Assembly: GCA_000004695.1 (NCBI GenBank) | Contig: CM000151.3 | Span: forward strand, 8,096,001 to 8,160,000 | From: Dictyostelium discoideum | Lineage: Eukaryota | DNA: 64,000 nt | Reading direction: 5' to 3' | Part shown: positions 2,993 to 46,775 of the stretch, piece by piece | Layout of the letters: every line of letters begins with the position of its first letter | Position numbering within the stretch: position 1 is the stretch's first letter | The notes under the pieces: generated by a model | The model's database searches: none | What the model was told of the DNA's origin: nothing | What the model saw: only the letters and a program-made list of their open reading frames with translations | Position numbers and translations under genes: made by a program

Positions 2993-5621
2993 GACAAAAA
3001 AAAAAAAAAAAAAAGATATATTGAAATACCATTTTTAGCAGTATCTTCAAAGATTGATTTATCATTAATAGGAAAATCATTAGAATCATTATCTTTTTTT
3101 CATCCAAATAATTTTACATTTGGCGGCTTATTTCCAATAATTTTACCATCCAATGAAGCATTTAAAAAATTGGAATTTGTTAATGGAAATATTGAAACAT
3201 TTGATTTTTCATTATTTACAAATGTTGAAACATTATCATTAGAAAGTAATTTAATGTCAAATGATTTTCCTTCAAGTTTCAATAGAACAATTCATAGAAA
3301 ATTAAAACACCTTGATATAAGTAATAATAAAATGACAGGTACAATTGATGATTCATTTTGTCAATTAGAAATCATTGTTACAAATAATTCAATGACAGGT
3401 TTAATTCCAACTTGTTTTACATGTTTCTTTGGATTACCAGAAATAAATTTAGAAAGATATTTTATTGGAAATAATTTTATAAATTTAAATACACCTTCTT
3501 CACCATGTAAGTGTTTTATTTTTTATTTTTTATTTTTTATTTTTTATTTTTTATTTTTTTTTTTTAATTTGTTTTTTTTTACTAATTCCATTTATGATAT
3601 ATATATATATTTGTATTTAAGCAATTATCATTCCAAATATAGTTTTTAATAATACTTCAATTATTGAGGGTATTCCAATAGTTTTTTATGAATATTTAAT
3701 ATTTGGTGAAAATTTAGGTGGTAGTTGGGTTCCATTTACAGCTGTCTCTGATTCTGTAGGAACACCAATGATTTTTTCAATGATTGAGTCAAATAGTTTA
3801 TTTAAAGTATTTTGCTATGGAGAGCCCAAGTTTCCTTTAAACTTATCATACAGTAAGTCTAACCCAAACTATACATTTACTTTATCATTGGGAATACCAC
3901 CAATATTAAATTTAGTAGATTGGCAATCAAGTACAACTGATTTAGTAATAGATGGTTCATTCTTTACATATAATGGTTCTATAATTAATATTACAATTGG
4001 TAATGAAAATTGTTTCGTTACAAATACAAATTTTTATCAAATTAAATGTAAACTTTCAAATGTTATAGATCAATCATTAGAGGATATTATATCATATATT
4101 ACAATTGGTAATTTTAAAACTCAATTCACTTTAAATCCAGGTGTAATAAATACAATTTTAAATTGTACTGAAAATTATAATGATTGTAATGGTAATGGTA
4201 ATTGTTTATCTGATATTGGTAAATGTAAATGTGATTCAACTCATCAAGGTGATGATTGCTCAATCCCATATATAGAATGTTTAAATGATTGTAATAATGT
4301 TGGTCAATGTAATAATCAAACTGGTATTTGTTCATGCCCAATCACTCCTTACGAATGGATTGGTATTGATTGTTCAATTCCATTACATACAATATCAGCA
4401 GTTTCACCAAGTGATACCAATGGTGGTAGTGCTTCGATTTATGGTTGGTTTAGTAATAATCATACTGATCCACAAGTTTTCATTGGTAATAAACAATGTA
4501 TACCAATTTTTAGTATATCTGAAAGTGAAATTATTTGTAAAGCACCACCAGGTACAGGTTTAAAATCAGTAAGTGTAATTCAAAATTCAATCAATGTAAC
4601 ATCAAAAGATATTTATCAATATTATTCAAATGATAAACAATGTCCAAATCATTGTACATCGACATCAAATGGTATTTGTAATACAACAACTGGATATTGT
4701 AATTGTATCGGGAGATGGAGCGGTTATGATTGTAGTTTATATTCAAATCCAAGTGGTGGCGATAATAATAGTGGAATACCAGGATCAAATACAACAATAG
4801 ATGGTAATACTGGTAATACAAACATTACAAATCAACAAACAAATTATCAAATTTTAATTACAAAATTAATAGAGATAGATTTCAATGGTAATCAAATCAA
4901 TGAATATCTTTTATTAAATAAATGGTCAATAATTTCAAATATTAGTAAAACAGTTTACACATTCATTCAATCAATTCAAAATGATATATGTAATATTACA
5001 TATACAATTGAAGAAGTTAATAAAGATAGAGATGTATCATTTGCAGGTATTAATTTTAAATTAACAAGTGGATCAGTTAAAATGACAGTATCAATTGAAA
5101 ATTATCAATATTCAAGTAATTTAAATACATTACAATTACAAATGAAATCAAGTGTAAATGAAATTCAAACAAATAATGAAATGAATGATTGTAACGATGA
5201 TCAAATTGAAATTGATAGTACACCGAACCAAGATAATTCATTAAATTATATAACAATTAAAAAAGATGCAAAAGTTTTAAATGGTAGATTTATAGACAGA
5301 ATCGAAAGTGATGGTATATCAACATTTATGCAAACTGTGTTAGTATCAAAATCAAATGATTCAATTACAGTTGGTATGAATTTACCTCATTGTACAAAGA
5401 AATGTTTATTAGATCCTGACTTCTCTGTATTGATTAGTCCTGAATTCATTGATGAATGTGATGATAATAATCGTGAGTCATGGTTTTTACCAGTTGTGAT
5501 CGCTGTTCCAGTTGGAGGTCTAGCTGCAATTATTGCTATTGTTTTCATAATTTACAAAAAAAGATTTGTTGAAGCCCCATTAAAAAGAAAATTAAAATCA
5601 CTTAGAAATTATAAAAATTAA
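2024..5621 (+). pseudogene. Paralog A of an LRR / EGF-like / IPT-TIG single-pass membrane protein family; apparently disrupted; exons approx 2024..2565, ~2659/2693..2942, 3016..3506, 3622..5621
   Basis: Same four-exon architecture as the intact paralog C at 10401..13993, with near-identical nucleotide sequence in exons 1-4. TCA->TAA in exon 1 (2414..2416; C has aattCatatcc, A has aattAatatcc). A 1-nt insertion just after the predicted exon-2 acceptor creates an in-frame TAG (2656..2658). Exons 3-4 are fully open: signal peptide, LRR-like NxL repeats, CxCDSTHQGDDCS EGF-like, ISAVSPSDTNGGSASIYGWF IPT/TIG, TM LPVVIAVPVGGLAAIIAIVFIIY. Confidence 0.5.
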
Positions 5622-11380: not shown

Positions 11381-13993
11381 CAAAAAAAAAAAAAAAAGAT
11401 TTATTGAAATACCATTTTTAGCAGTATCTTCAAAAATTGATTTATCATTAATAGGAAAATCATTAGAATCATTATATTTTTTTCATCCAAATAATTTTAC
11501 ATTTGGTGGTTTATTTCCAATAATTTTACCATCAAATGAAGCATTTAAAAAATTGGAATTTGTTTATGGAAATATTGAAATATTAGATCTTTCATTATTT
11601 ACAAATGTTGAAACATTATCATTAAAATGTAATTTAATGTCCAATGGTTTTCCTTCAAGTTTCAATAGAACAATTCATAGAAAATTAAAACACATTGATA
11701 TAAGCAATAATAGTATTACAGGTACAATTGATGATTCATTTTGTCAATTGGAAATCATTGTTACAAATAATTCAATGACAGGTTTAATTCCAACTTGTTT
11801 TACATGTTTCTTTGGATTACCAGAAATAAATTTAGAAAGATATTTTATTGGAAATAATTTTATAAATTTAAATACACCTTCTTCACCATGTAAGTGTTTT
11901 ATTTTTTATTTTTTATTTTTTATTTTTTTATTTTAATTTGTTTTTTTTTACTAATTCCATTTATGATATATATATATATTTGTATTTAAGCAATTATCAT
12001 TCCAAATATAGTTTTTAATAATACTTCAATTATTGAGGGTTCAATAGTTTTTTATGAATATTTAATATTTGGTGAAAATTTAGGTGGTAGTTGGGTTCCA
12101 TTTACAGCTGTCTCTGATTCTGTAGGAACACCAATGATTATTTCAATGATTGAGCCAAATAGTTTATTTAAATTATTTTGCAATGGAGAGCCCAAGTTTC
12201 CTTTAAACTTATCATACAGTAAGTCTAACCCAAACTATACATTTACTTTATCATTGGGAATACCACCAATATTAAATTTAGTAGATTGGCAATCAAGTAC
12301 AACTGATTTAGTAATAGATGGTTCATTCTTTACATATAATAGTTCTATAATTAATATTACAATTGGTAATGAAAATTGTTTGGTTACAAATACAAATTTT
12401 TATCAAATTAAATGTACACTTTCAAATGTTATAGATCAATCATTAGAGGATATTATATCATATATTACAAATGGTAATTTAATAACTCAATTCACTTTAA
12501 ATCCAGGTGTAATAAATACAATTTTAAATTGTACTGAAAATTATAATGATTGTAATGGTAATGGATATTGTTTATCTGATATTGGTAAATGTAAATGTGA
12601 TCCAACCCATCAAGGTGGTGATTGCTCTTTGCCATATATAGAATGTTTAAATGATTGTAATAATGTTGGTCAATGTAATAATCAAACTGGTATTTGCTCG
12701 TGTCCAATCTCTCCTTATGAATGGAGTGGTATTGATTGTTCAATTCCATTACATACAATATCTGCAGTTTCACCAAGTGATACCAATGGTGGTAGCGCTT
12801 CAATTTATGGTTGGTTTAGTAATAATCATACTTATCTACAAGTTTTCATTGGTAATAAACAATGTATACCAATTTATAATATATCTAAAAGTGAAATTAT
12901 TTGTAAAGCACCACCAAGTACAGGTTTAAAATCAGTTAGTGTAATTCAAAATTCAATCAATGTAACATCAAAAGATATTTATCAATATTATTCAAATGAT
13001 AAACAATGTCCAAATCATTGTACATCGACATCAAATGGCATTTGTAATACAACAACTGGATATTGTAATTGTATTGGAAGATGGAGCGGTTATGATTGTA
13101 GTTTATATTCAAATCCAAGTGGTGGTGGCGATAATAGTGGTGGATTACCAGGATCAAATACAACAATAGATGGTAATACTGGTAATACAAATATTACAAA
13201 TCAACAAACAAATTATCAAATTTTAATTACAAAATTAATAGAGATAGATTTCAATGGTAATCAAATCAATGAATATCTATTATTAAATAAATGGTCAATA
13301 ATTTCAAATATTAGTAAAACAGTTTACACATTCATTCAATCAATTCAAAATGATAAATGTAATATCACATATACAATTGATGAAATTAATAAAGATAGAG
13401 ACACAACTTTCGCAGGTATTAATTTTAAATTAACAAGTGGATCAGTTAAAATGACAGTATCAATTGAAAACTATCAATATTCAAGTAATTTAAATACATT
13501 ACAATTACAAATGAAATCAAGTGTAAATGAAATTCAAACAAATAATGAAAATGATTGTAACAATGATCAAATTGAAATCAATAATACACCAAATCAAGAT
13601 AATTCATTAAATTATATGACAATTAAAAAAGATGCAAAAGTTTTAAATGGTAGATTTATAGACAGAATCGAAAGTGATGGTATATCAACATTTATGCAAA
13701 CTGTGTTAGTATCAAAATCAAATGATTCAATTACAGTTGGTATGAATTTACCTCATTGTACAAAGAAATGTTTATTAGATCCTGATTTCTCTGTATTGGT
13801 TAGTCCTGAATTCGTTGATGAATGTGGTGGTGATAATGATCGAAAATCCTGGTTTTTACCAGTTGTTATAGTGGTTCCTATTGTTTTTTTAACCTTAATA
13901 ATTATTTTTGTAGTTATTACTATAAAAAAAAGATTTGTTGAGATGTATTTATTTAAATCAAAAATAAAACAATTGGCAAACTTAAATAAATAA
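10401..13993 (+). CDS. Paralog C (intact) of the LRR / EGF-like / IPT-TIG type-I membrane protein family; exons 10401..10942, 11041..11331, 11399..11889, 11991..13993
   Basis: Signal peptide (MLNFIQKISKSGCNFFYLFLILILINFSNPKVNSQ). Cys-containing N-terminal domain. LRR-like repeats (LSLKCNLMSNGFPSSFNRTIHRKLKHIDISNNSITGTIDDSFCQLEIIVTNNSMTGLIPTCF). Two EGF-like modules (CNGNGYCLSDIGKCKCDPTHQGGDCSLPYIECLNDCNNVGQCNNQTGICSCP). IPT/TIG-like module (ISAVSPSDTNGGSASIYGWF...ICKAPPSTGLKSVSV). C-terminal TM (LPVVIVVPIVFLTLIIIFVVITI) and short basic tail. Donors ATG|GTAAGT, AT|GTATGT, T|GTAAGT with phase-consistent acceptors. Confidence 0.7.
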
Positions 13994-18748: not shown

Positions 18749-19443
18749 TTGATAAACAAAATGAAATTTTTTTTTTTTTTATTCATCAAAATTTCATTTC
18801 ACAAATCTCAAAACATGAAAGATATAAGTTTACCAAAATATTTACACATTGATATTTTAAAACCAATAATTGATTATTTATTAACAAATAATAATAAAAT
18901 AAATTATGATAATAATAATAATAATAACAATAAATACATAATTAAAAACTATTATTTATATATAAATGAAATAATTAAATTATCATTAGTATCAAATCAT
19001 TGGTATCAAATAATATCAAATTTAATAATATCAAATTTAATATCAAATAATATTTTAGAGGAATGGTTCGATTTATATAGTGATTATTTACCAGAGGAGG
19101 AGAATGTTAATAAAGGAATTAATTTTATAGCATATGATTTTAATAAAATTTATGATGTTTATTTAACTCAATCAAATTTTAAAATGAAAGTTAATCAACA
19201 ATATTCAATTATCAAAATTAATCAATCAGTTATTGAAGATTATTTCAGAAATCAAGTACTATGTATTTATGATTTAACATATGAAAAATTATTACAACTC
19301 AGTAAATTAGAAACAGAAGGTAATTTAAAGTATAGAAAGATTATATCAAAAAATCCCTACTCTAAAGATGGTTTTAAAAATTTATTTTTAGAGGGTGGAA
19401 TTGCAAAAGGTATTGAAAAGAATGGTTTACTTGATATATCATC

Positions 19444-19540
<97 letters not shown>

Positions 19541-20806
19541 AATAATAATAATAATATTGTAGAATTAAATGTTTATGATTTTCTATTGGAAAATAATGCA
19601 GAAGAAGGTTTTTATAATTTATTACCAAAGGAAGAAGATGAATATGACATTTATAAAGATCCCCAACCAATACTCTATTTAAACACTATTGATTATGAAG
19701 GATCTCAAGATGATTATAATGAAAAAACATTTAGAATTTTGAAATACTTAAAATCAAAAAATATAATATTTAGATCAAATTATAATGAGAATGTTCATGC
19801 AGATTTTTCATTAATGTTTAACAATAAAATCAACAATCAAGTCGAGTCAATTAGAATAGATTCAGATTTTGTAGAACCAATCGATTTGCAAAATGTATAT
19901 GAACTTACAAATTTACATACACTTTCAATTCCATTACATTTTCATCAAATGATTCTATTACAATTGGGTATTGGAAAATTACATTGTAGGGGTGGTGATT
20001 TACTTGAACATAAAGATAATGTAATGCAAGATTGGGATAAAATGATTCGATCATTATTAGCAAGTAAATCAATTAAAAATTTTAAAATTTCTAATAAATG
20101 TTATACATATGAATGTATTAATAAAAGCATCAACTCTTATAATAATGAAAATTACAGTGCGGCCAGTAGACATGTTAAAAAAATATTCTCAAATGGTATC
20201 AAACAACTTTTATCATCATCAACATTTAAATATTTTAAATTTTCAAATATGTACGATATCATTAGTATTGATACATTTTCAGAATTAAAAAATAATAAAA
20301 CTCTTAAAAAATTGGTATATAAAGAAAAGTTTCATTATGGTTATAGGCTCTTCTTTACTACATCTGAAGAGGTTGCAGAATATCAATTTAATATTATAAA
20401 TTATTTAATTGAAAATATTTTTTCAAATGGCACCAGTGGTGGCAGTATGCTTAGTAATAATATCAAACATTTTAAATTTTCATTAGAATTTCCATATAAA
20501 TTAAAATTAATATTTGAATCATTATTTAAGCATTATAATTATTTTCAACTATATTCTATTACTATTGTAATATATGACACACTTTATGAAGAACTTTTAA
20601 ATGAAATTATTAATTTATCAAATAAAATTTCAAAAGTTCAACAACAGCAACAACAACAACAACAATCAATTAAAGAATTTAAAATTGTTATTGAGAAAAA
20701 CTTTAGTGACAATAAACATTTTCAATCAATATTAAATGATAGAAATATTAATGGTGATAATGGTTTATTTGTAATTACAGTTTCAAATAAAAAAAGACTC
20801 TGCTAA
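18749..20806 (+). CDS. Hypothetical protein, paralog 1 of a tandem pair; F-box-like N-terminus; contains a long poly-Asn tract. The conserved start may be the ATG at 18815 (MKDISLPKY...)
   Basis: 685-aa ORF. The N-terminal [19 protein letters not shown]...[13 protein letters not shown] resembles an F-box (LPxEIL...L..VSKxW) with an Asn-rich insertion. About 80% identical at the protein level to the ORF at 21341..23332. (AAC)n encodes about 37 consecutive Asn. Confidence 0.65.
19445..19555 (+). repeat. (AAC)n then (AAT)n coding trinucleotide repeat (about 37 Asn) in paralog 1; only about 9 Asn at the homologous site of paralog 2
   Basis: caacaacaac... run of about 95 bp followed by aataataat. 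Confidence 0.9.
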
Positions 20807-21340: not shown

Positions 21341-23332
21341 TTGTCAAATGGTTTCATGAAAGACAAGACGAAATTTTTTTTTTTAATTTATCAAAATTTT
21401 ATTTCACAACCTCAAAACATGAAAGATATAAGTTTACCAAAATATTTACACATTGATATTTTAAAACCAATAATTGATTATTTATTAACAAATAATAATA
21501 AAATAAATTATGATAATAATAATAATAATAACAATAAATACATAATTAAAAACTATTATTTATATATAAATGAAATAATTAAATTATCATTAGTATCAAA
21601 TCATTGGTATCAAATAATATCAAATTTAATAATATCAAATTTAATATCAAATAATATTTTAGAGGAATGGTTCAATTTATTTGAAGAGGATTTACAGGAG
21701 GAGGAGGAGGAGGATTTTAATAAAAGAATTAATTTTATATTATATAGGTTTAATAAAATTTATGATGTTTGTTTAACTCATTCATATTTTAAAATGAAAG
21801 TTAATCAAAAATATTCAATTATCAAAATTAATCAATCAATTATTAAAGATTATTTTAGAAATCAAGTACTATGTATTTATGATTTAACATATGAAAAATT
21901 ATTACAACTCAGTAAATTAGAAACAGAAGGTAATTTAAAGTATAGAAAGATTATATCAAAAATTTTCTACACTAAAGATGTTTTTAAAAATTTATTTTTA
22001 GAAGGTGGAATTGCAAAAGGTATTGAAAAGAATGGTTTACTTGATATATCATCAAATAAAAACAACAACAACAACAATAATAATAATATTGTAGAATTAA
22101 TTGTTTATGATTTTCTATTGGAAAATGATGCTGAAGAAGGTTTTTATAATTTATTACCAAAGGAAGATGATGAATATGGTATTTATAAAGATCTCCAACC
22201 AATACTCTATTTAAACACTATTGATTATGAAGGATCTCAAGATGATTATAATGAAAAAACATTTAGAATTTTGGAATACTTAAAATCAAAAAATATAAAA
22301 TTTAGAACAACTAGTGTTAAAAATGTTCATGCAGATTTTTCATTAATGTTTAACAATAAAATCAACAATCAAGTCGAGTCAATTAGAATAGATTCAGATT
22401 TTGTAGAACCAATCGATTTGCAAAATGTATATGAACTTACAAATTTACATACACTTTCAATTCCATTACATTTTCATCAAATGATTCTATTACAATTGGG
22501 TATTGAGGAATTACATTGTAGGGGTGGTGATTTACTTGAACATACAGATAATGTAATGCAAGATTGGGATAAAATGATTCAATCATTATTGGCAAGTAAA
22601 TCAATTAAAAATTTTAAAATTTTTAATAAATGTTATTTAGGTGAATGTATCAATCAAAGCATCAAATCTTATAATAATGAAAATTACAGTGCAGCCAGTA
22701 GACAAGTTAAAAAATTATTTTCAGATGGTATCAAACAACTTTTATCATCATCAACATTTAAATATTTTAAAATTTATAATATGCACGATATCATTAGTAT
22801 TGATACATTTTCAGAATTAAAAAATAATAAAACTCTTAAAAAATTGGTATATAAAGAAAGGTTTCTATATAATTATTGCCTACGTAATAAAGAAGAGGTT
22901 GCAGAACATCAATTTAATATTATAAATTATTTAATTGAAAATGTTTTTTCAAATGGTGCTAGTGGTAGTGGTATGCTTAGTAATAATATCAAACATTTTA
23001 AATTTTCATTGGAATTTCCAAATAAATTAAAATTAATATTTGAATCATTATTTAAGCATTATAATTATTTTCAACTATATTCTATTACTATTGTAATATA
23101 TGAAACACTTTATGAAGAACTTTTAAATGAAATTATTAATCTATCAAATAAAATTTCAAAAGTTCAACAACAGCAGCAACAACAACAACAACAATCAATT
23201 AAAGAATTTAAAATTGTTATCAATAAAAAAATTAACAATAAACATTTTCAAACAATATTAAATGATAGAAATATTAATGGTGATAATGGTTTATTTGTAA
23301 TTACAGTTTCAAATAAAAAAAGACTCTGCTAA
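21341..23332 (+). CDS. Hypothetical protein, paralog 2 of the tandem pair (F-box-like N-terminus). The conserved start may be the ATG at 21419
   Basis: 663-aa ORF collinear with 18749..20806. Shares [30 protein letters not shown], the C-terminal poly-Gln and ...[14 protein letters not shown]. Acidic insert [10 protein letters not shown] in place of paralog 1's PEEENVNK. Confidence 0.65.
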   Translation: [663 protein letters not shown]

Positions 23333-39753: not shown

Positions 39754-39872
39754 ATTCCTAAATATATAAATTTGTGTGTTTTGTTTTTTTAAATGAAAAT
39801 TTCCATCGTTTTTTTTTTTTTTTTGATTTCCAAATTATTTTTATTTTTTTTTTTTTATTTTTTTTTTTTGTC

Positions 39873-39905
<33 letters not shown>

Positions 39906-40498
39906 CCAACTTTCTTTTTAATAAATTATTTAATTTATTAATTACTTAATGTTAATAAAAAAAATATTAATTAATTCTTACTTTTATGGTAATATCGAAT
40001 CTCTAAAATTAAATGGTGAGATTATTTTTTTTTTTTATTTTTATATATATTATTTTTTATTATTTTTATTTTTTTTATTTTTTTTTATTATTTTTTTATT
40101 TTTTTTATTTTTTTTGGAATGAAAAATAAAATTATTAAATTTGAAATTTATAGTTTTTTTTTAGGTTTTTTTTTTATTTATATTAAACTATATAAATTAT
40201 ATTATATTTTTAATAATTTTCTTATTTTATTTTTTAAGATCTCATTTTTTTGAAAAAAAAATACAAAACAAGATTGTGTTTGAAAAAAAAAAAAAAGGCA
40301 CATCTTCCAATTTTTATTCTTAGTAAAAAATAGGTCCAAAAAAAAAAAAAAAAAAAAAAACAAATTAAATAAAACAACACACAAATTAAAAAAAAAATTT
40401 TTATTTTATTTATTTATTTTTTAATTTGTATTTTTTTAATTCATTTTTTTTTTTAATTTATTTTTTATTTATTTAATAACATATAATTTTAAATAAAA

Positions 40499-40957
40499 AT
40501 GACAAGTAAATATTGTTGCCAACATGATGAATTTTCTTTAAGAAAGCTTAAAAAAAGTGAAGATTTCACTCTTTACCTTGATGAATTACTAGATCAAGAT
40601 GAGTTTCTAAAGATTCAGCCTGGTTACTGCACAGAGGAATGTAAACAAAAAATGAAGGAGATTTATAGAATTACATTCGAACGTTATATTGAGACTATAA
40701 ACAAATATTACAGTGACAGCAGAATTTTTGAATATAACTTGGGAAAAAATCCTCGAGGATGTGATATTTGGATGTATCGAGAATTTTTCAGTACTCCACC
40801 CCCTATCTCTCCCCAAGATGAATATGCTAGAATGGTCATAAAAGCAATGAAAGTTGGTATTAAAGATGGAAAGCCTGTTAGATTATGTGAATTGCCACCT
40901 GGTGTACAATGTGATTTTGATGCAAAAAACCTACCTGATTCTGAAGAAGATGAATAG
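40499..40957 (+). CDS. Hypothetical 152-aa protein with atypical codon usage (Cys-pair rich: CCQHDE...CTEEC...C..PPGVQC)
   Basis: Intact ATG..TAG ORF. Codons such as CAG CCT GGT TAC TGC ACA GAG and CGA GGA TGT are unusual for this genome. No family recognised by eye. Confidence 0.45.
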   Translation: MTSKYCCQHDEFSLRKLKKSEDFTLYLDELLDQDEFLKIQPGYCTEECKQKMKEIYRITFERYIETINKYYSDSRIFEYNLGKNPRGCDIWMYREFFSTPPPISPQDEYARMVIKAMKVGIKDGKPVRLCELPPGVQCDFDAKNLPDSEEDE

Positions 40958-41149
40958 AAAAATAAGTGTTAATTAAATAAAAAGAACTGTTTTAAATTTT
41001 TTTATTTTATTTTACTTTTATTTTTTTTTATAACTCTTATATAAGAGAAGTAGTTTATTTTTTTTTTAATTTTTAATATTTTTTTTTTATTTCTTTTAAT
41101 TATTTTTTTTTTTCTTTTTTTATTTCTTGCACCTCTTTTAGGTGCAAAG

Positions 41150-41365
41150 TTACCATATATATCGTTGAGCTTCTTGTGCAGTTGCAAAGGTTCTAATTAG
41201 CTCTTGTTTTTCTCTAAGTCTTTGCAATCGTCTTCTTTCACTTTCTTCTTGCATCAACCTTCTTCTTTCTTCTTGTTCAGCCAATCTTTGTTGTGTTTTT
41301 TTAATTTTTATTAATTTTACCGTTTCAGGGTCTGCTTCAATTTCTTTTTTTTGATGGGCACCCAT
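41150..41365 (-). CDS. Hypothetical 71-aa charged coiled-coil ORF (QRLAEQEERRRLMQEESERRRLQRLREKQELIR)
   Basis: GC-richer ORF within the island. No homology assignable. Confidence 0.25.
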   Translation of the reverse strand: MGAHQKKEIEADPETVKLIKIKKTQQRLAEQEERRRLMQEESERRRLQRLREKQELIRTFATAQEAQRYIW

Positions 41366-41399
41366 CGTTTTTTTTTAAAAAGTAAACCTAATGATTTAT

Positions 41400-41880
41400 A
41401 CATGTTTATATTTAATAATTGAGAATTTTTATTTTATGACATTGGTTTTGAATTATTTTTAAAAAAATCATTTTAAATTTTCTTTGATTCGTTACATTTT
41501 TGTTTCTATCTAATGATCATTTTCCAATGATTTTATATTAATGGTCATTGGAAAATCCTTTAGCTAGGAATTCTATAGAGAATCATTGAGTAAATAATGG
41601 TTTCTATAGGAAATCTTTAAACAACCATTAAAAATCGTTGATTTTTCTTTGGCTCAATTTTTAATAGTTTTCTATGTAATGGTCACATCTATACCGTTAT
41701 CAATCTAAAACCATTGGAAATAACAATATCTAATGATTTTCAATAAAGTTCAATAAAATTATAAAAAAATGAAAATAATGGATTTCATTAAAAGAATTTT
41801 TTTAAAATAAGATTAAAAATTTTATTTAAAGAATTTTTTTATTGATTTCCATAAGGAAACCATTATATGATTTTTTTTTT
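41400..41880. repeat. Array of degenerate about 20-bp repeats containing CCATTGG / AATGGTC cores
   Basis: tccaatgattttatattaatggtcattggaaaatcc; aatggtttctataggaaatc; aaccattaaaaatcgttgat; taatggtcacatctataccg; aaaccattggaaataac; ggaaaccattatatgat. Followed at 42037..42072 by (GAAATTAATAAC)3 flanked by gatttgatttct direct repeats. Confidence 0.5.
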
Positions 41881-43056
41881 TTGTTTTTTTTTTTTTTATA
41901 AAAATGAGAAAACTATTGGTACTTTATTATAATTAAAATAAAATAAATATTAATAAATGTAAAACTTTATAAAATAAATATTATTATAATAAAAGTAATA
42001 ATAAGGATAGATTGATTTGATTTCTTGAAATTAATAACGAAATTAATAACGAAATTAATAACGAAATTAATTTGATTTCTAAAAAATGTTTATTTTTTTT
42101 TCTATTTTTAGTGTAAAAAAGGGGGAAATAATTTAATTCATCAGTGAGCTGTCATTTTTAGTTTTGAACGTTTTGCATCATCAGATTCCAATGTTTGACT
42201 ATAAATATTTTCTTTACTTTTAATCTCTTGTTTAATTATTCTCTATCACGTTTTGGTTTCATTAGACCCTTGTTATATTCCAATGCCGATGATTCATTAA
42301 TACGGTCAAACTCTTTTTGAAAAGGTGTAGGTGGTACTTTCTTTAATTTTTCGGTGAACAAAACCGATGATGATTTATCACCAGTTATAGTTTTTGAAAG
42401 TTTTTTCCTATCGATTGGCATCTCCAATGTTGAACCTTTTTTTTATAATTTTCTTTTAAATCCATTCAAATTCATTTTTTTAAAAAAAATTATTCAATCA
42501 TTTTTTTAAAAAAAAAAAAATTTAAACATTAATTAAAATTATATTTTAGAAATAAAAAAGAAAAAAATGGAGCTTTTAATTCCATTAAGTTTATTGGGAT
42601 TATATTTATTTTCAGGGACAAGAGATTCAGTTCATAAGGGAGAAGTTAAAGATGACTTGAAAGAGAAACCTATAAAAGTTAATTTTAATTTAACTGACTC
42701 TACAAAAGTTGACCATAAAACTCATCTCAAACAGTACAGTTCATTAAAACCAGGTGACACATTGGAAATATTATAACAAAAACATTTAGATCACTCTACG
42801 AAAGATTTAAAACACCCAGTATCCATTATCAATGATAAGTCTGACAGTAAAATTCATCTTAAACGAACATACCGGAAAAGTTAAAGTTAAATTTATTGAT
42901 CATACAATTCGTAGTGATGTTAGACCAATCTCATTTGGAATTAATAAAAAATAATTTATTTTCTAAAAAAAAAAAAAAAATTCTCTTTATTATTTATTAT
43001 TTATTTTTAAAATTAGTTTTGTTTTTTTAAAAAAAAAAAAAAAAGAAAGAAAAAAA

Positions 43057-44300
43057 ATGGGTATCAGTGATCAAATCAATAGTAATTTATCAAGTCAATC
43101 TCCATTTACTGTAAGTACAAACCCAAGTGATTCAATGTTTCTTCCAACAAACAGAATTGCAAAAACAGCAGATTGGAAAGAGGAGAAAAAATATTACTAT
43201 CCAAAAGAATCGATTCAAAGTATTTATGAAGGTACAACAGTTCGTATCGTAATCGATAAACAAAATGGTAGACTTTATGGTTTGGAAATGGTAGTTGAAA
43301 TTGGACCATTGACTGCAAATGGTGCTACATTTACACGTCTCTGTAGGGATGTTGCTCATTCGATGGCCTATAGTGTTTCAATATGGAATGGTAATAATGA
43401 AATTCATAGACTTCATATGGATCATGAAAGAATTGAGATGGTTTTAACTAAATTAAAACATGAAAGGGACATGGAAGATAAGATGGCCGGTTACTATGAT
43501 GATGCGACACGTACTGCATTGGGTGCAACAAAACAAAAATTAATTTTTGATTTGAATTTCTTTCATACTGTCCACACTTCTGATGCACTCTATTTAAATG
43601 CCTGGCATTGAAATACACTTATCAAATTAAGATCAATCCTTTAAGAAGATGGGTAGAAACCGATGGTACTGATCCAAAAGCTAATGATTTCAAAGTTTAT
43701 CTTCGTGCTGATATTATTCATACACCACAGGATGAATATCGTATAGTTCATAATACTATCAACACTGGTACTGGTATTTTTTCACCAATTGAACATACAG
43801 AGATGAAAGAGCGTGTAGTACTCAACGTTGGTGAATCAAAACATTATGTTCAATTAACAAACATTATTGGTAATGGTCGTTCTTATTTTGTTGTTTTAAG
43901 AAGATTGGCAGACACTGAAAATCCAAAAGCACCAAGATATGATGATTTCATGCCATGGGAAAATATGCGTTTATTACATGCCGGTAATAAGGAAGTTCAT
44001 TTACCACATAATAATATGATGGATTGTTTTAAACATTTAAAGCATCGTTTTCATTTTGATGCATCCTACAATGATGATAAATCTCCAAACAGTATGAATA
44101 TTTATGGCTTCAGTTTTTCAGCTAATCCTATCGATGTCAAAAATCGAACAGGTTGTTTTTCATTCTCACAAGCAAACAATCTTCAATTGGAAGTAACAAC
44201 AAAAACTCTAACTGAACCATGGGTACTCGATTTTTATACAGCATCCACTCAAATCATTCAACAATCTGGTAACACAGCAAAAACAATTCTCCATTATTAA
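43057..44300 (+). pseudogene. NCLDV-type (double jelly-roll) major capsid protein homologue, split by a frameshift at about 43600..43611 (ORFs 43057..43611 and 43608..44300)
   Basis: ORF1 QNGRLYGLEMVVEIGPL..VSIWNGNNEIHRLHMDH..KLIFDLNFFHTVHTSDALYLNAWH* resembles PBCV-1/FV3 MCP R(N/S)GD(L/Y)I..(V/L)V..L / IGGQRIDKHYNDW / PLIFFF..GLALPLIALQYHEVK. ORF2 continues the motif (EIK)YTYQIKIN after a frame change. C-terminal IYGFSFSANPIDVKNRTGCFSFSQANNLQLEV resembles HLYAYAFSL..PSGSCNFSRIDNA.L.L of NCLDV capsids. Combined length about 414 aa. Confidence 0.7.
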
Positions 44301-44440
44301 AAAAAAAAATAAAAAAGTATAAAAATAAAATTTTTTTTTTTTTTTATTTAAAATTGATAAAGAATTTTTTTATTAAAAATTAAGTCTATCGTTTCGTCGT
44401 TATCTTCTTTATCTTCGTTATCGTTGTCGATGGCATTGGT

Positions 44441-45443
44441 CTATAGATTATCTACTGATTTTTTAAAGATTTTTTTCTTTAGTTTTTTCATTTCTTTCTT
44501 TTTAGTTTTTTCCTCCTGAATTAACCACCACCCAGGGCATACTGAATCAGTGGGTAATGAACCCCTCTTTATATCAAAACGAGGCAAATCTTTAAATTGA
44601 TGGTATAGATTCGTATACTCATAAGGAGTGTATCTAAAGATTTCAAATTCTTTAAAAGAACTACCGATAGTAGACTTGTGTTTGGATGATAAAAACAAAT
44701 TTTTAAATTCAAACCATTATCACCTGGCGATAAAACTTCATGAAGTAATAATGTTTCTTTAAATTCCCATAGAAATATGTGATGATTCCTATCATTTTCA
44801 TTACAAACTCTACAATTCATTAGCTCCCGTTTCCTTAGAAGATCGATTAAAACCTTCCAATGTTCATCAATTTTCTCAAGTTTATGATTAAGAAAAAAAG
44901 ATTCCAGAGCAATTTTTATATGATGTAGCCGATTATCAAATCTATAAAGATGTTCTCAAACTTAATACAGTAAAAATTGGAAAGGATTTGGATGGAAAAC
45001 AATGTTTTATTCATGAGTTTGGTTCTTATGGTGACCGTATGGTTGGAGCATTGGTTGGTAGTGATCTCTTGGGTGGTTATAGTACTTTCTTTGGAATAAT
45101 TGTTTCGGTTTTCATAAAGAATAAGGACATTTCATTAAAATAATTCCTTCCATTGGTTAAAATCGATAGAGATTATACTGTTCCTGAAATGTTTGTTCTT
45201 TACAAAGAACTTAGATCAACTGGTCAATTTGCAAAATCACCAAATCTTTACAAATTTTATTGTTCATTACTTTGGCTCTTGGTAAATATTCATGAACAAC
45301 TTAGTGACGATGGTAAAAATGGTTTCGAATCTCAAGCGATCAACTTACCTCTTTGCAATTATATATTGGTGAATCTAAACACAGCGATTCCTTCGAAATT
45401 CTTTATTTTTTTTTTTTTTTTAATAACATCGCTCAATTTATAA
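44441..45443. other. Decayed GC-richer ORF fragments on both strands between the MCP relic and the tRNA (44441..44820 minus, 44905..45140 plus, 45153..45443 plus)
   Basis: Overlapping frameshifted minus-strand ORFs (CRVCNENDRNHHIFLWEF... / ...YTPYEYTNLYHQFKDLPRFDIKRGSLPTDSVCPGWWLIQEE). Plus-strand fragment ...GKQCFIHEFGSYGDRMVGALVGSDLLGG, reminiscent of a minimal nucleotidyltransferase hG[GS]..G....SD motif but with the second Asp missing. Followed by KIDRDYTVPEMFVLYKELRSTGQFAKSPNLYKFYCSLLWLLVNIHEQL. Confidence 0.3.
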
Positions 45444-45486
45444 AATTCTTTATTATGTTTGGTTAAAATTGAAAAAAATTATCAAA

Positions 45487-45559
45487 GGGGATGTAGCTCA
45501 GATGGTAGAGCGCTCGCTTAGCATGCGAGAGGTAAAGGGATCGATACCCTTCTTCTCCA
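45487..45559 (+). tRNA. tRNA-Ala (anticodon AGC), 73 nt, with a non-canonical T-loop
   Basis: GGGGATG acceptor with G3:U70. A box TAGCTCAGATGG. Anticodon arm CTCGC-TTAGCAT-GCGAG. T-arm AAGGG-ATCGATA-CCCTT (A54; B box GGGATCGATACC deviates from GGTTCGANTCC). 3' acceptor CTTCTCC (T6.T67 mismatch) plus discriminator A. T6 terminator follows immediately at 45560..45565. Confidence 0.8.
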
Positions 45560-45587
45560 TTTTTTGGGCCGACGATATGAGATCGCA

Positions 45588-45598
45588 GGTTCGATTCC
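45588..45598 (+). promoter_or_regulatory. Extragenic B box (ex-B) downstream of the tRNA gene
   Basis: Perfect GGTTCGATTCC about 29 bp downstream of the tRNA 3' end. Dictyostelium tRNA genes frequently carry such an external B box, which is also used for TRE3 targeting. Confidence 0.55.
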
Positions 45599-45831
45599 TA
45601 ATTTTATTATCAACAAATTTGAAATGTTTATAAATTTAACTTTACTCGAAAAGAGTTCAATTCAAACTTTAATAATATATGATTTGTAATAATAGTATAT
45701 TTAAATTATCTACTAAAAATTTCAATTTTTATTCATTAAAGACTATTTTAGTACCAATTAATAATATTACTTTTATTAGTTCATTAGATCAAGCATTTTA
45801 TAAATTTCAAAAATAAATAAAAAATAATAAT

Positions 45832-45873
<42 letters not shown>

Positions 45874-46775
45874 ATTTCAATTAAGATCTTTAGATGTGAT
45901 TCAAATACTTTGATATCAAAAAATTTACTACAATCAATTAAAATAAATTAATAATTAAATAAATAAAAAAAAGAGGTAAAAAAAAAAACTTAATATAGTT
46001 TATTTGTTTGAGTTTATTTTTTTTTTTTTTTTGTTTATGTATTTTTTACCGATATTTTTTTTTTTTCTGTCTCTCACTCTCTTACTTGAACATGTTGTTT
46101 TCAAGTATAAAAAAAAAATAAAAAAAAAAAACAAAAATAAAAATTGGTGGGTTGATTTTATTTATTTATCATTTTTAATTCCAAATCGGGTGTGATATTT
46201 GCTGGAAAAAAAAAATTATTTTTGTTTTTTTTTTTTTTTATTTTTTTTTTTTTAATTTTATTTTTCTAATAATATTAAAACTCATTAAAAAAAAAATAAT
46301 AATAATATTTCAATTCATTGTTCATTAAGCTTTATATATGTGATTAAAAAAAAATTAAAAAAAAAAAAAAAAAAAAATATAAAAAAAATAATTTATAACA
46401 CACACTCACAAATTTATACACTCACACAACACACCCTCACAAGTATAATATTTAAAATTCATATCAAATTTCAATTTTTTTTAACAACACACATATATAT
46501 AAATTCATAAAAATTATAATAAACAACCTCATTCATCAAATATTTGTAATTATTATTTTTTTTTTTTTTAATTTTATTTTTTTTTTATTTTTTTTATTTT
46601 TTTTTTTTTTTCTTTTAAAAGAAATAAAAAAAATAAAAAAAAGCTGTTTCTGTATAAAAAAAAAACAAAAAAAAAAAAAATTTATCTTCTTTTTATTAAT
46701 TTAAAACAATTTCAAATACCAAAAAATTTTTTTTTTTTTTAATTAAATAGTATACATACAATTAAAAATATTAAA

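Follow-up and report, generated by a model that had tools for sequence, protein, structure and literature searches.

A probable relic of a Nucleocytoviricota-type virus beside a tRNA-Ala gene of Dictyostelium discoideum AX4

Introduction

What is the origin of the block of about 5 kb that lies directly 5' of a tRNA-Ala(AGC) gene on chromosome 2 of Dictyostelium discoideum AX4, and does its position beside a tRNA gene reveal how it arrived there? The block is contained in a stretch of 64,000 nucleotides (GenBank assembly GCA_000004695.1, contig CM000151.3, positions 8,096,001 to 8,160,000; hereafter the window) with a GC content of 22.2%, and the coordinates given below are those of the window unless another locus is named. 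D. discoideum is a major model organism for cell biology and for host-pathogen work, and we know of no described virus of this species.

An initial annotation of the window described the block as a compositionally foreign island with a capsid relic, and suggested that it might be a different kind of mobile or viral insertion that had used the tRNA gene as its target. Our comparisons indicate that the block is very probably a decayed endogenous viral element (EVE) of the nucleocytoplasmic large DNA virus (NCLDV; Nucleocytoviricota) type, and we lean, with distinctly less assurance, towards a mriyavirus-like parent. The earlier suggestion holds in that the DNA appears to be viral, and needs amendment in that its source falls within a recognisable virus phylum and the block is a decayed endogenous element. 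Matching of open reading frames (ORFs) to known proteins identified those of the block with the AX4 genes DDB_G0277465, DDB_G0277467 and DDB_G0277457, and the neighbouring gene as plbE.

The central gene encodes a major capsid protein

The central gene of the block is a pseudogene at 43057-44300 (+ strand) corresponding to 414 codons, for which both profile and fold comparisons show a predicted major capsid protein (MCP) of the double-jelly-roll type typical of NCLDVs (NCVOG0022 family). Its two ORFs, at 43057-43611 and 43608-44300, represent a single gene that has been split by one frameshift at about 43600-43605, and in AX4 they are annotated as DDB_G0277465 and as part of DDB_G0277467. When joined, the two halves are 95% identical to intact 414-aa proteins encoded in wild Dictyostelium genomes. 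The gene model of an independent AX4-like assembly places an 'intron' across the same position, and a sequencing error is therefore excluded as the cause of the frameshift.

Among 1.8 billion representative proteins, which were searched exhaustively, only 40 relatives of the MCP were recovered at E<=0.001. Most are about 400-440 aa long, with a few shorter fragments; the nearest are found in dictyostelids, including Acytostelium, and the remainder are metagenomic. The Acytostelium subglobosum member of the family is XP_012747666.1. The family profile matches solved NCLDV capsids in the Protein Data Bank (PDB), including that of EhV-201 (8rbs, E=1e-25), with further matches to PBCV-1 chains (8h2i), Vp54, the faustovirus capsid and p72 of African swine fever virus (E values to 1e-10).

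An AlphaFold2 (AF2) model of the protein, calculated from a 37-sequence alignment, contains two jelly rolls and has a predicted local distance difference test score (pLDDT) of 87.8 and a predicted template modelling (TM) score of 0.86. In a fold search of the PDB with this model, the best 50 matches were all Nucleocytoviricota capsid or scaffold proteins, with query-normalised TM scores of 0.54-0.76. The leading matches in BFVD were NCLDV MCPs (TM 0.75-0.81, E of about 1e-24), and the first named virophage MCP appeared at rank 47 (E=4e-13, TM 0.51). No match was obtained when the MCP was compared with a phage collection by tblastn, and a single-protein scan of IMG/VR with P0043 found nothing. 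The capsid relic proposed in the initial annotation is thus corroborated by profile and fold evidence.

Related copies in other Dictyostelium genomes

The content of the island is colinear with that of ten other loci that carry the element, seven of which retain an intact 414-aa MCP. These loci are located in D. cf. discoideum (L001, L002, L005, L012-L014 and L016), in a second strain labelled 'D. discoideum' (L010 and L011) and in an AX4-like genome (L015). The window segment at 42130-44879 is 96.0-96.4% identical to eight of the copies, and that at 44874-45381 is 97% identical to element copies. Distances between MCP genes of the same orientation on one contig are 31.3, 38.4 and 55.4 kb; such copies occur at about 1.49-1.58 Mb of contig JBTAPH010000036.1 (GCA_054859205.1) and at about 2.48-2.54 Mb of contig JBTAPF010000019.1 (GCA_054859385.1). 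L014 and L016 together provide about 26 kb of continuous gene order.

Several genes of these copies strengthen the link to Nucleocytoviricota. The 470-aa protein of L002 matches the Pfam family Pox_VLTF3 (E=1.7e-5, 25 bits), which is exactly at the curated cutoff and hence borderline, and this match recurs in eight element copies. A packaging ATPase of the A32 type, which is absent from the window, is encoded by a frame-corrected ORF at L016 11808-12700 (Pox_A32, E=1.5e-6, 28.4 bits against a cutoff of 22.8). Other genes in the copies encode a deoxynucleoside kinase (E=9e-10), a YqaJ/PDDEXK nuclease (a precomputed Pfam YqaJ match in L005) and fibre-like paralogues. Weaker matches point to GIY-YIG-like proteins and to an archaeo-eukaryotic primase (AEP; AEP_C962R, E=0.03).

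Two further assignments are more tentative. A RuvC-like protein begins with MIIIGIDPG, and its sole match in the PDB, to the resolvase Ydc2, is weak (E=0.17); a Pfam search with it was negative. Proteins of 178-187 aa carry the HUH-like motifs FHLTINT, HSHT(L/V)I and YI(K/R)K, which we read by eye and which are conserved between two lineages of the element, and both Pfam and PDB sequence searches with these proteins were negative. The 187-aa protein is encoded at L016 14384-14947.

Approximately 45 kb of distinct element sequence has been seen, never from end to end, and contains no DNA or RNA polymerase gene. Nor were SF3 or SF2 helicases or VLTF2 identified in the Dictyostelium copies, and in the parts seen there is no reverse transcriptase (RT) or retroviral-type integrase that belongs to the element. 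The RT and integrase matches that do occur near copies derive from Skipper-like retrotransposons inserted into them. These long terminal repeat (LTR) retrotransposons, which encode RT, RNase H and integrase, are located at L001 15408-20469, L011 1-4842 and 13427-18840, and L016 1-1230; the one in L001 has an additional chromodomain-like motif, read by eye. A gene for a PIF/Harbinger-type DDE_Tnp_4 transposase lies beside one element copy.

A second and divergent lineage of the element was found on a 58-kb D. cf. discoideum contig (L003; JBTAPH010000006.1), where the MCP is 31% identical and is nearest in the alignment to the A. subglobosum protein. Two gene orders are kept in this lineage, namely 800-aa protein/129-aa protein/MCP and RuvC-like protein/glycine-rich predicted membrane protein/HUH-like protein, and four fibre-like paralogues are arranged in tandem. 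A more distant family MCP (23% identity) is encoded on a 35,344-bp metagenome contig (L004; ENA ERZ25072490, contig ctg193411_8.78x_c), of which 14 kb were seen. The same contig carries a convergent zinc-ribbon gene, a putative SF3 helicase of the DUF5906 NTPase family and a homologue of the primase large subunit. Given the '_c' suffix of its name, this contig may be circular and is a candidate for a free-living relative.

The AX4-like locus L015 (GCA_054883475.1, contig JBTAPE010000039.1, 2959072-2979530) is a second patchwork relic, located on chromosome 1. It holds DDB_G0268734, which is a paralogue of a 152-aa ORF of the window, together with deoxynucleoside-kinase, AEP-primase-like and GIY-YIG-like fragments. 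The left segment of the island recurs there as an inverted duplicate, and retrotransposons are also present.

The block is a lineage-specific insertion

We compared the window with four orthologous plbE-tRNA-Ala loci, from D. citrinum (L006), the second 'D. discoideum' strain (L007), D. cf. discoideum (L008) and D. dimigraforme (L009). On either side of the position of the block, each of these loci matches the window in colinear order, and each retains the tRNA-Ala gene but lacks the block. On the left, homology ends at 40107-40112 in L007 and L008, and earlier, at about 39883-39902, in L006 and L009. On the right it restarts at 45472-45476, with no matching sequence in the orthologous loci between these ends. 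The AX4-specific DNA thus spans 40113-45471, and the block is a lineage-specific insertion that the AX4 lineage gained after its split from the closest sequenced relatives.

The claim that this is a discrete block is borne out both by these insertion boundaries and by base composition, since 40499-45480 has the highest GC content of any 5-kb stretch in the window (0.271; all 5-kb windows: mean 0.222, standard deviation 0.018, maximum 0.275). However, 'compositionally foreign' was an overstatement. The GC content of the island genes, at 0.28-0.34, is in the range of neighbouring host exons (0.306 for plbE and 0.326 for a WD40 gene), and host ORFs within the window span 0.19-0.385. What sets the block apart is its gene density; its genes are no richer in GC than those of the host.

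Similarly, the notion that the block uses codons avoided by host genes is correct only in degree. GC content at third codon positions is 0.20-0.22 in island genes, at the top of the host range (0.07-0.21). Codon usage was scored as a leave-one-out synonymous-codon log-likelihood, which gave low values of -0.82 and -0.84 for the MCP halves and -0.99 for the 152-aa ORF, compared with -0.685 +/- 0.10 (minimum -0.908) for host ORFs. Codon usage of the island genes is therefore only mildly atypical. The abrupt drop to AT-rich flanks is real (GC 0.099 at 39760-40498 and 0.134 at 45600-46775), but these flanks are ordinary Dictyostelium intergenic DNA and are no sign of foreignness.

A proposed origin and life cycle

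On the basis of the gene content of the block and its relatives, we propose that the AX4 lineage gained DNA from a small, Nucleocytoviricota-type virus with a double-stranded DNA genome, of which the island is a mosaic fragment with internal deletions. The genome of the parent virus would have been about 30-40 kb. Its icosahedral capsid would be built from the MCP and filled with DNA by the A32 ATPase, and its late genes would be driven by the VLTF3-like factor. An HUH-type nickase may start replication and a RuvC-like enzyme may resolve the intermediates, presumably with host polymerases acting in the nucleus, as in the mriyavirus lifestyle. The virus would integrate into chromosomes, often as same-orientation copies, and appears to have moved recently between host lineages.

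Mriyaviruses have genomes of 35-45 kb that encode an MCP, an ATPase, VLTF3, RuvC, PDDEXK and HUH proteins and no polymerases (Yutin et al. 2024, PMC11253617). The Dictyostelium element appears to resemble these Mriyaviricetes (Yaravirus brasiliensis and the Pleurochrysis endemic viruses) in its inferred size and in its set of NCLDV-type MCP, A32 ATPase, VLTF3, RuvC-like, PDDEXK/YqaJ and HUH-like protein of about 160-190 aa. Likewise, the parts of the element that have been seen carry no DNA or RNA polymerase, and the host of Yaravirus is also an amoebozoan. Unlike the mriyaviruses described in that paper, the Dictyostelium copies are chromosomally integrated and multi-copy, with same-orientation pairs.

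A connection between Yaravirus and dictyostelids is evident in the published data, where the best GenBank match of the Yaravirus HUH endonuclease is the Acytostelium protein XP_012747655.1 (Table S1 of PMC11253617). This accession is 11 numbers away from that of the Acytostelium MCP-family member. The words 'integrat' and 'endogen' do not occur in the main text of the mriyavirus paper (PMC11253617), and integrated regions related to Mriyaviricetes have been reported in algae (bioRxiv 10.1101/2025.04.19.649669).

Several points weigh against this interpretation. The affinity to mriyaviruses is drawn from gene set and size and not from a phylogeny, and the estimate of genome size is itself indirect. 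The MCP of Yaravirus has 596 aa as opposed to 414 aa here, and neither an SF3/SF2 helicase nor VLTF2 has a recognised counterpart in the Dictyostelium copies. The HUH and RuvC assignments rely on motifs recognised by eye plus one weak match, both being Pfam-negative, and the AEP-primase match is weak as well. A DNA or RNA polymerase gene could sit in the unseen part of the element. Moreover, as described below, the left and right segments of the island have different histories, and it may have been assembled by intragenomic recombination between relics rather than by one integration. The comparison of element and host rates involves a single host gene. Finally, an insertion would seldom come to lie within 15 bp of a tRNA gene by chance, so that some connection with tRNA-associated processes is likely.

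Endogenous Nucleocytoviricota elements are well known from protists, algae and fungi, for example from Acanthamoeba, Euglena, Rhizophagus and Ectocarpus. The Dictyostelium element shares with EVEs and giant endogenous viral elements (GEVEs) the presence of integrated NCLDV-type genes including an MCP, a host-like composition, and erosion by deletions, frameshifts and retrotransposon invasion (here by Skipper-like elements inside L001 and L011). It differs from them in its dictyostelid host, in its far smaller apparent size and in the near-identity of copies across host lineages.

Probable recent spread and a mosaic relic

Over 5.2 kb, intact copies taken from two host lineages share 98.8-99.5% identity, and their MCP genes show a synonymous divergence (dS) of 0.006-0.010. 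The host gene plbE has a dS of 0.13 between the same two genomes and of 0.10 between AX4 and either one, such that between-lineage divergence is about 15-fold lower for the element than for the one host gene compared. By this measure the element is much younger than the host split, which suggests recent horizontal spread between host lineages. The second 'D. discoideum' assembly (GCA_054859385.1, represented by L007) is as distant from AX4 as is 'D. cf. discoideum', with a plbE dS of 0.10 and 86-93% identical DNA, and may represent a cryptic species.

The AX4 relic is older. Its MCP differs from the intact copies by a dS of 0.04-0.05, and the ratio of nonsynonymous to synonymous divergence (dN/dS) is 0.37-0.48 on the AX4 comparison versus 0-0.26 among intact copies. 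As judged from these ratios, the relic has evolved under relaxed constraint. The right segment of the island thus diverged by a dS of about 0.05, whereas the left segment has a dS of 0.58 to L001, and therefore the island is a mosaic.

Structure and decay of the AX4 copy

The AX4-specific DNA begins with an AT-rich spacer (40113-40397), which has only low-complexity matches elsewhere. The left segment of the island follows at 40398-41917 (+ strand), and is 75-86% identical to L001, L002, L005, L010 and L014 and 93.7% identical to the chromosome-1 relic L015. It includes the sole intact ORF of the block, DDB_G0277457 (40499-40957, + strand), which encodes a 152-aa protein of a family that has expanded within the elements. 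Protein identity among cluster members from several lineages is 86-99%. The ORF has a dS of 0.012 to its chromosome-1 paralogue, and comparison with the L001 copy yields a dN/dS of 0.165. Pfam and PHROG scans of this ORF gave no match, as was true of a PHROGs scan of ten island ORFs, and its AF2 model was unusable (pLDDT 39).

A 71-aa ORF on the opposite strand (41150-41365, - strand) covers residues 1-70 of a 101-aa element protein with 91% identity. Adjacent to it, at 41380-41917, is non-coding element DNA whose sequence is conserved at five further element loci and which contains a cluster of the sequence AATGRTY, with 12 matches in 41390-41864 (475 bp) compared with about 1.3 per kb window-wide. 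This cluster is possibly a promoter array or other regulatory DNA, or a replication origin. Next is an AX4-specific junction (41918-42129) that has replaced some 5.6 kb present in the full element (L001 3479-9066). Within this junction a 12-nt unit, GAAATTAATAAC, is perfectly repeated in tandem 3.8 times at 42027-42071.

To locate lesions in the remainder of the block, we aligned intact element proteins to the window. The N-terminal 118 codons of a gene for a protein of about 800 aa persist at 42131-42475 (- strand) with in-frame stops. A pseudogene for a 129-aa protein with a hydrophobic N-terminus, as read by eye, occupies 42567-42957 (+ strand) and has one in-frame stop and one frameshift. 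Beyond the MCP, the gene for the VLTF3-like late transcription factor has lost its N-terminal 292 codons; residues 293-470 persist at 44351-44883 (- strand), interrupted by one frameshift and one stop. The last viral sequence (44874-45397, + strand) comes from the interior of a gene for a 365-aa element protein, of which residues 84-258 remain; it is truncated at both ends and carries two stops and one frameshift. In addition to the 5.6-kb deletion at 41918-42129, a second internal deletion of about 1.5 kb lies between island pieces at 44879. All five genes in 42130-45397 carry frameshifts, stops or truncations, and therefore the AX4 copy cannot make capsids.

The published AX4 gene model DDB_G0277467 is a chimera. 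Across the tRNA gene it splices together the end of the MCP, VLTF3 sequence in antisense, the 365-aa relic and what is left of an FNIP-repeat gene that has been deleted. Both this model and DDB_G0277465 are pseudogene artefacts that should be re-annotated.

Alternative explanations

The strongest competitor, which we nevertheless judge unlikely, is that the block is a fragment of a large (>100 kb) GEVE from the Megaviricetes or Pokkesviricetes, and that the spacing of 31-55 kb between MCP genes reflects segmental duplication within one big insertion. In sequence and fold the MCP is nearest to those of EhV-201, chloroviruses and iridoviruses. The elements contain paralogous families (152-aa, GIY-YIG-like and fibre-like), and such families are common in giant viruses; the deoxynucleoside kinase, the possible AEP primase and the unseen full extent of the element are also compatible with this view. 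However, the approximately 45 kb of distinct sequence lacks not only polymerases but also a capping enzyme or any other large core gene, and in L012 a host alpha-actinin gene is located about 6 kb left of the MCP. The genes are short and their set, including the HUH-like and PDDEXK proteins, fits the mriyavirus core, and the related MCP of L004 is carried on a contig of only 35,344 bp with a name ending in '_c'.

Of the sources that we considered, the least probable is a relic of a polinton (Maverick), polinton-like virus or virophage. Like the Dictyostelium element, these are small DNA viruses with double-jelly-roll capsids that integrate into protist genomes, often in multiple copies, and the MCP here is short. 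Such elements occur in other dictyostelids, with published reports of polinton polymerases in Polysphondylium, Acytostelium and D. fasciculatum (PMC4642659). Nonetheless, NCLDV MCPs match the capsid model far better than does any named virophage MCP, and VLTF3 is present, which has been reported as a signature restricted to Nucleocytoviricota (PMC11253617). None of the copies yielded a protein-primed polymerase, a retroviral-type integrase or a cysteine protease, and we rejected this candidate on account of the NCLDV-type MCP, the VLTF3 and the missing polinton enzymes.

Only marginally more credible is the idea that the block consists of viral genes that have been domesticated and now serve the amoeba. 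The intact 152-aa ORF shows the mark of purifying selection and is well conserved across lineages, and this ORF by itself may have been domesticated. For the MCP block, domestication was rejected, given that all five of its genes carry disabling lesions and that the block is missing from four close relatives. The relaxed dN/dS of the AX4 MCP also argues against a host function.

Adjacency to the tRNA gene

All four comparison genomes have the host tRNA-Ala(AGC) gene (45487-45559, + strand) at the orthologous site. This gene is a boundary marker outside the element and is preceded by 74 bp of AX4-specific filler (45398-45471), which separates the last viral homology from the conserved 12-15 bp 5' of the tRNA gene and may include a retroelement remnant. 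The block had initially been thought to end about 7 bp before the tRNA gene, but AX4-specific DNA stops 12-15 bp before it, and viral homology, at 45381-45397, about 90-106 bp before it.

A retroelement of the TRE5, TRE3 or DGLT-A type would be the conventional explanation for an insertion directly 5' of a tRNA gene, which is the one feature the block shares with these elements. The initial annotation doubted such an origin, and our results agree. The ten largest island ORFs contain no RT or apurinic/apyrimidinic endonuclease (APE) domain, as that annotation had also stated. The block likewise has no LTR or poly(A) tail, and carries viral structural and transcription genes instead; other element copies are located away from tRNA genes. 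A tRNA-targeted retroelement was accordingly rejected.

The broader proposal, in which a new mobile or viral element targets tRNA genes through an integrase or a mechanism associated with RNA polymerase III, also appears very unlikely to us, although less so than domestication. The insertion distances of DGLT-A include 12-15 bp 5' of tRNA genes, which is where the AX4-specific DNA stops. By our estimate, based on about 400 tRNA genes in 34 Mb, random proximity of this kind has a chance of about 2.5e-4. Even so, eleven other loci with element sequence, which together amount to about 230 kb, are devoid of tRNA genes, and therefore tRNA targeting is not a property of the family. The island encodes no integrase, and its viral homology ends in mid-gene.

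The edges of the island likewise give no support to the use of the tRNA gene as an integration target. Inspection for target-site duplications or terminal repeats revealed none, with only poly-A/T low complexity evident, and in an Rfam scan the tRNA was the sole match. The DNA 5' of tRNA-Ala differs in all five lineages to within about 12 bp of the gene, each having 0.3-2.4 kb of unrelated DNA, and consequently no clean empty (pre-insertion) site could be defined among them. The site thus turns over regardless of the virus. From these comparisons, the adjacency in AX4 looks like the product of an unstable region 5' of the tRNA gene that is a general turnover hotspot. For the NCLDV-type element, the position beside the tRNA gene would then be secondary and not that of a viral attachment site.

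On the 3' side of tRNA-Ala, a gene for a 620-aa FNIP-repeat protein is present in D. cf. discoideum (L008 2711-4573) and in D. citrinum (L006 6166-8031). Only the last ~60 codons of this gene are left in AX4 (45560-45816), which implies that a deletion of about 1.9 kb occurred as a second rearrangement next to this tRNA gene. A B-box-like copy, GGTTCGATTCC, is also located 3' of the tRNA at about 45589-45599.

Significance of the element

Our literature searches found no report of an NCLDV- or mriyavirus-type element in Dictyostelia apart from two hints, namely a 'hypothetical protein with homologs only in chloroviruses' (PMC5203793) and the tabulated link between the Yaravirus HUH endonuclease and Acytostelium noted above (PMC11253617). 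Although the AX4 relic is inert, it serves as a pointer to intact multi-copy elements in wild relatives. The near-identity of these copies across host lineages makes them look like recently active proviruses. Through them a Dictyostelium virus might be isolated, and they make it possible to ask if integration occurs in small relatives of giant viruses, a question that the mriyavirus paper does not address.

More speculatively, and in our estimation somewhat short of an even chance, the D. discoideum complex may host a living, chromosomally integrating mriyavirus-like virus, with same-orientation proviruses of about 30-40 kb and very recent host jumps, that is perhaps inducible in wild isolates. 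If so, this would be, as far as we are aware, the first virus of D. discoideum. AX4, which would keep only fossils on chromosomes 2 and 1, would then be a naturally 'cured' laboratory host, suited to work on infection, on antiviral defence and on integration, which might proceed via the HUH nickase.

Other features of the window

Two pairs of long paralogous ORFs are located elsewhere in the window, at 3768-5618 and 12134-13990 (617 and 619 aa) and at 18761-20803 and 21356-23329 (681 and 658 aa). The N-termini are very similar within both pairs, which suggests that local gene duplications have occurred.

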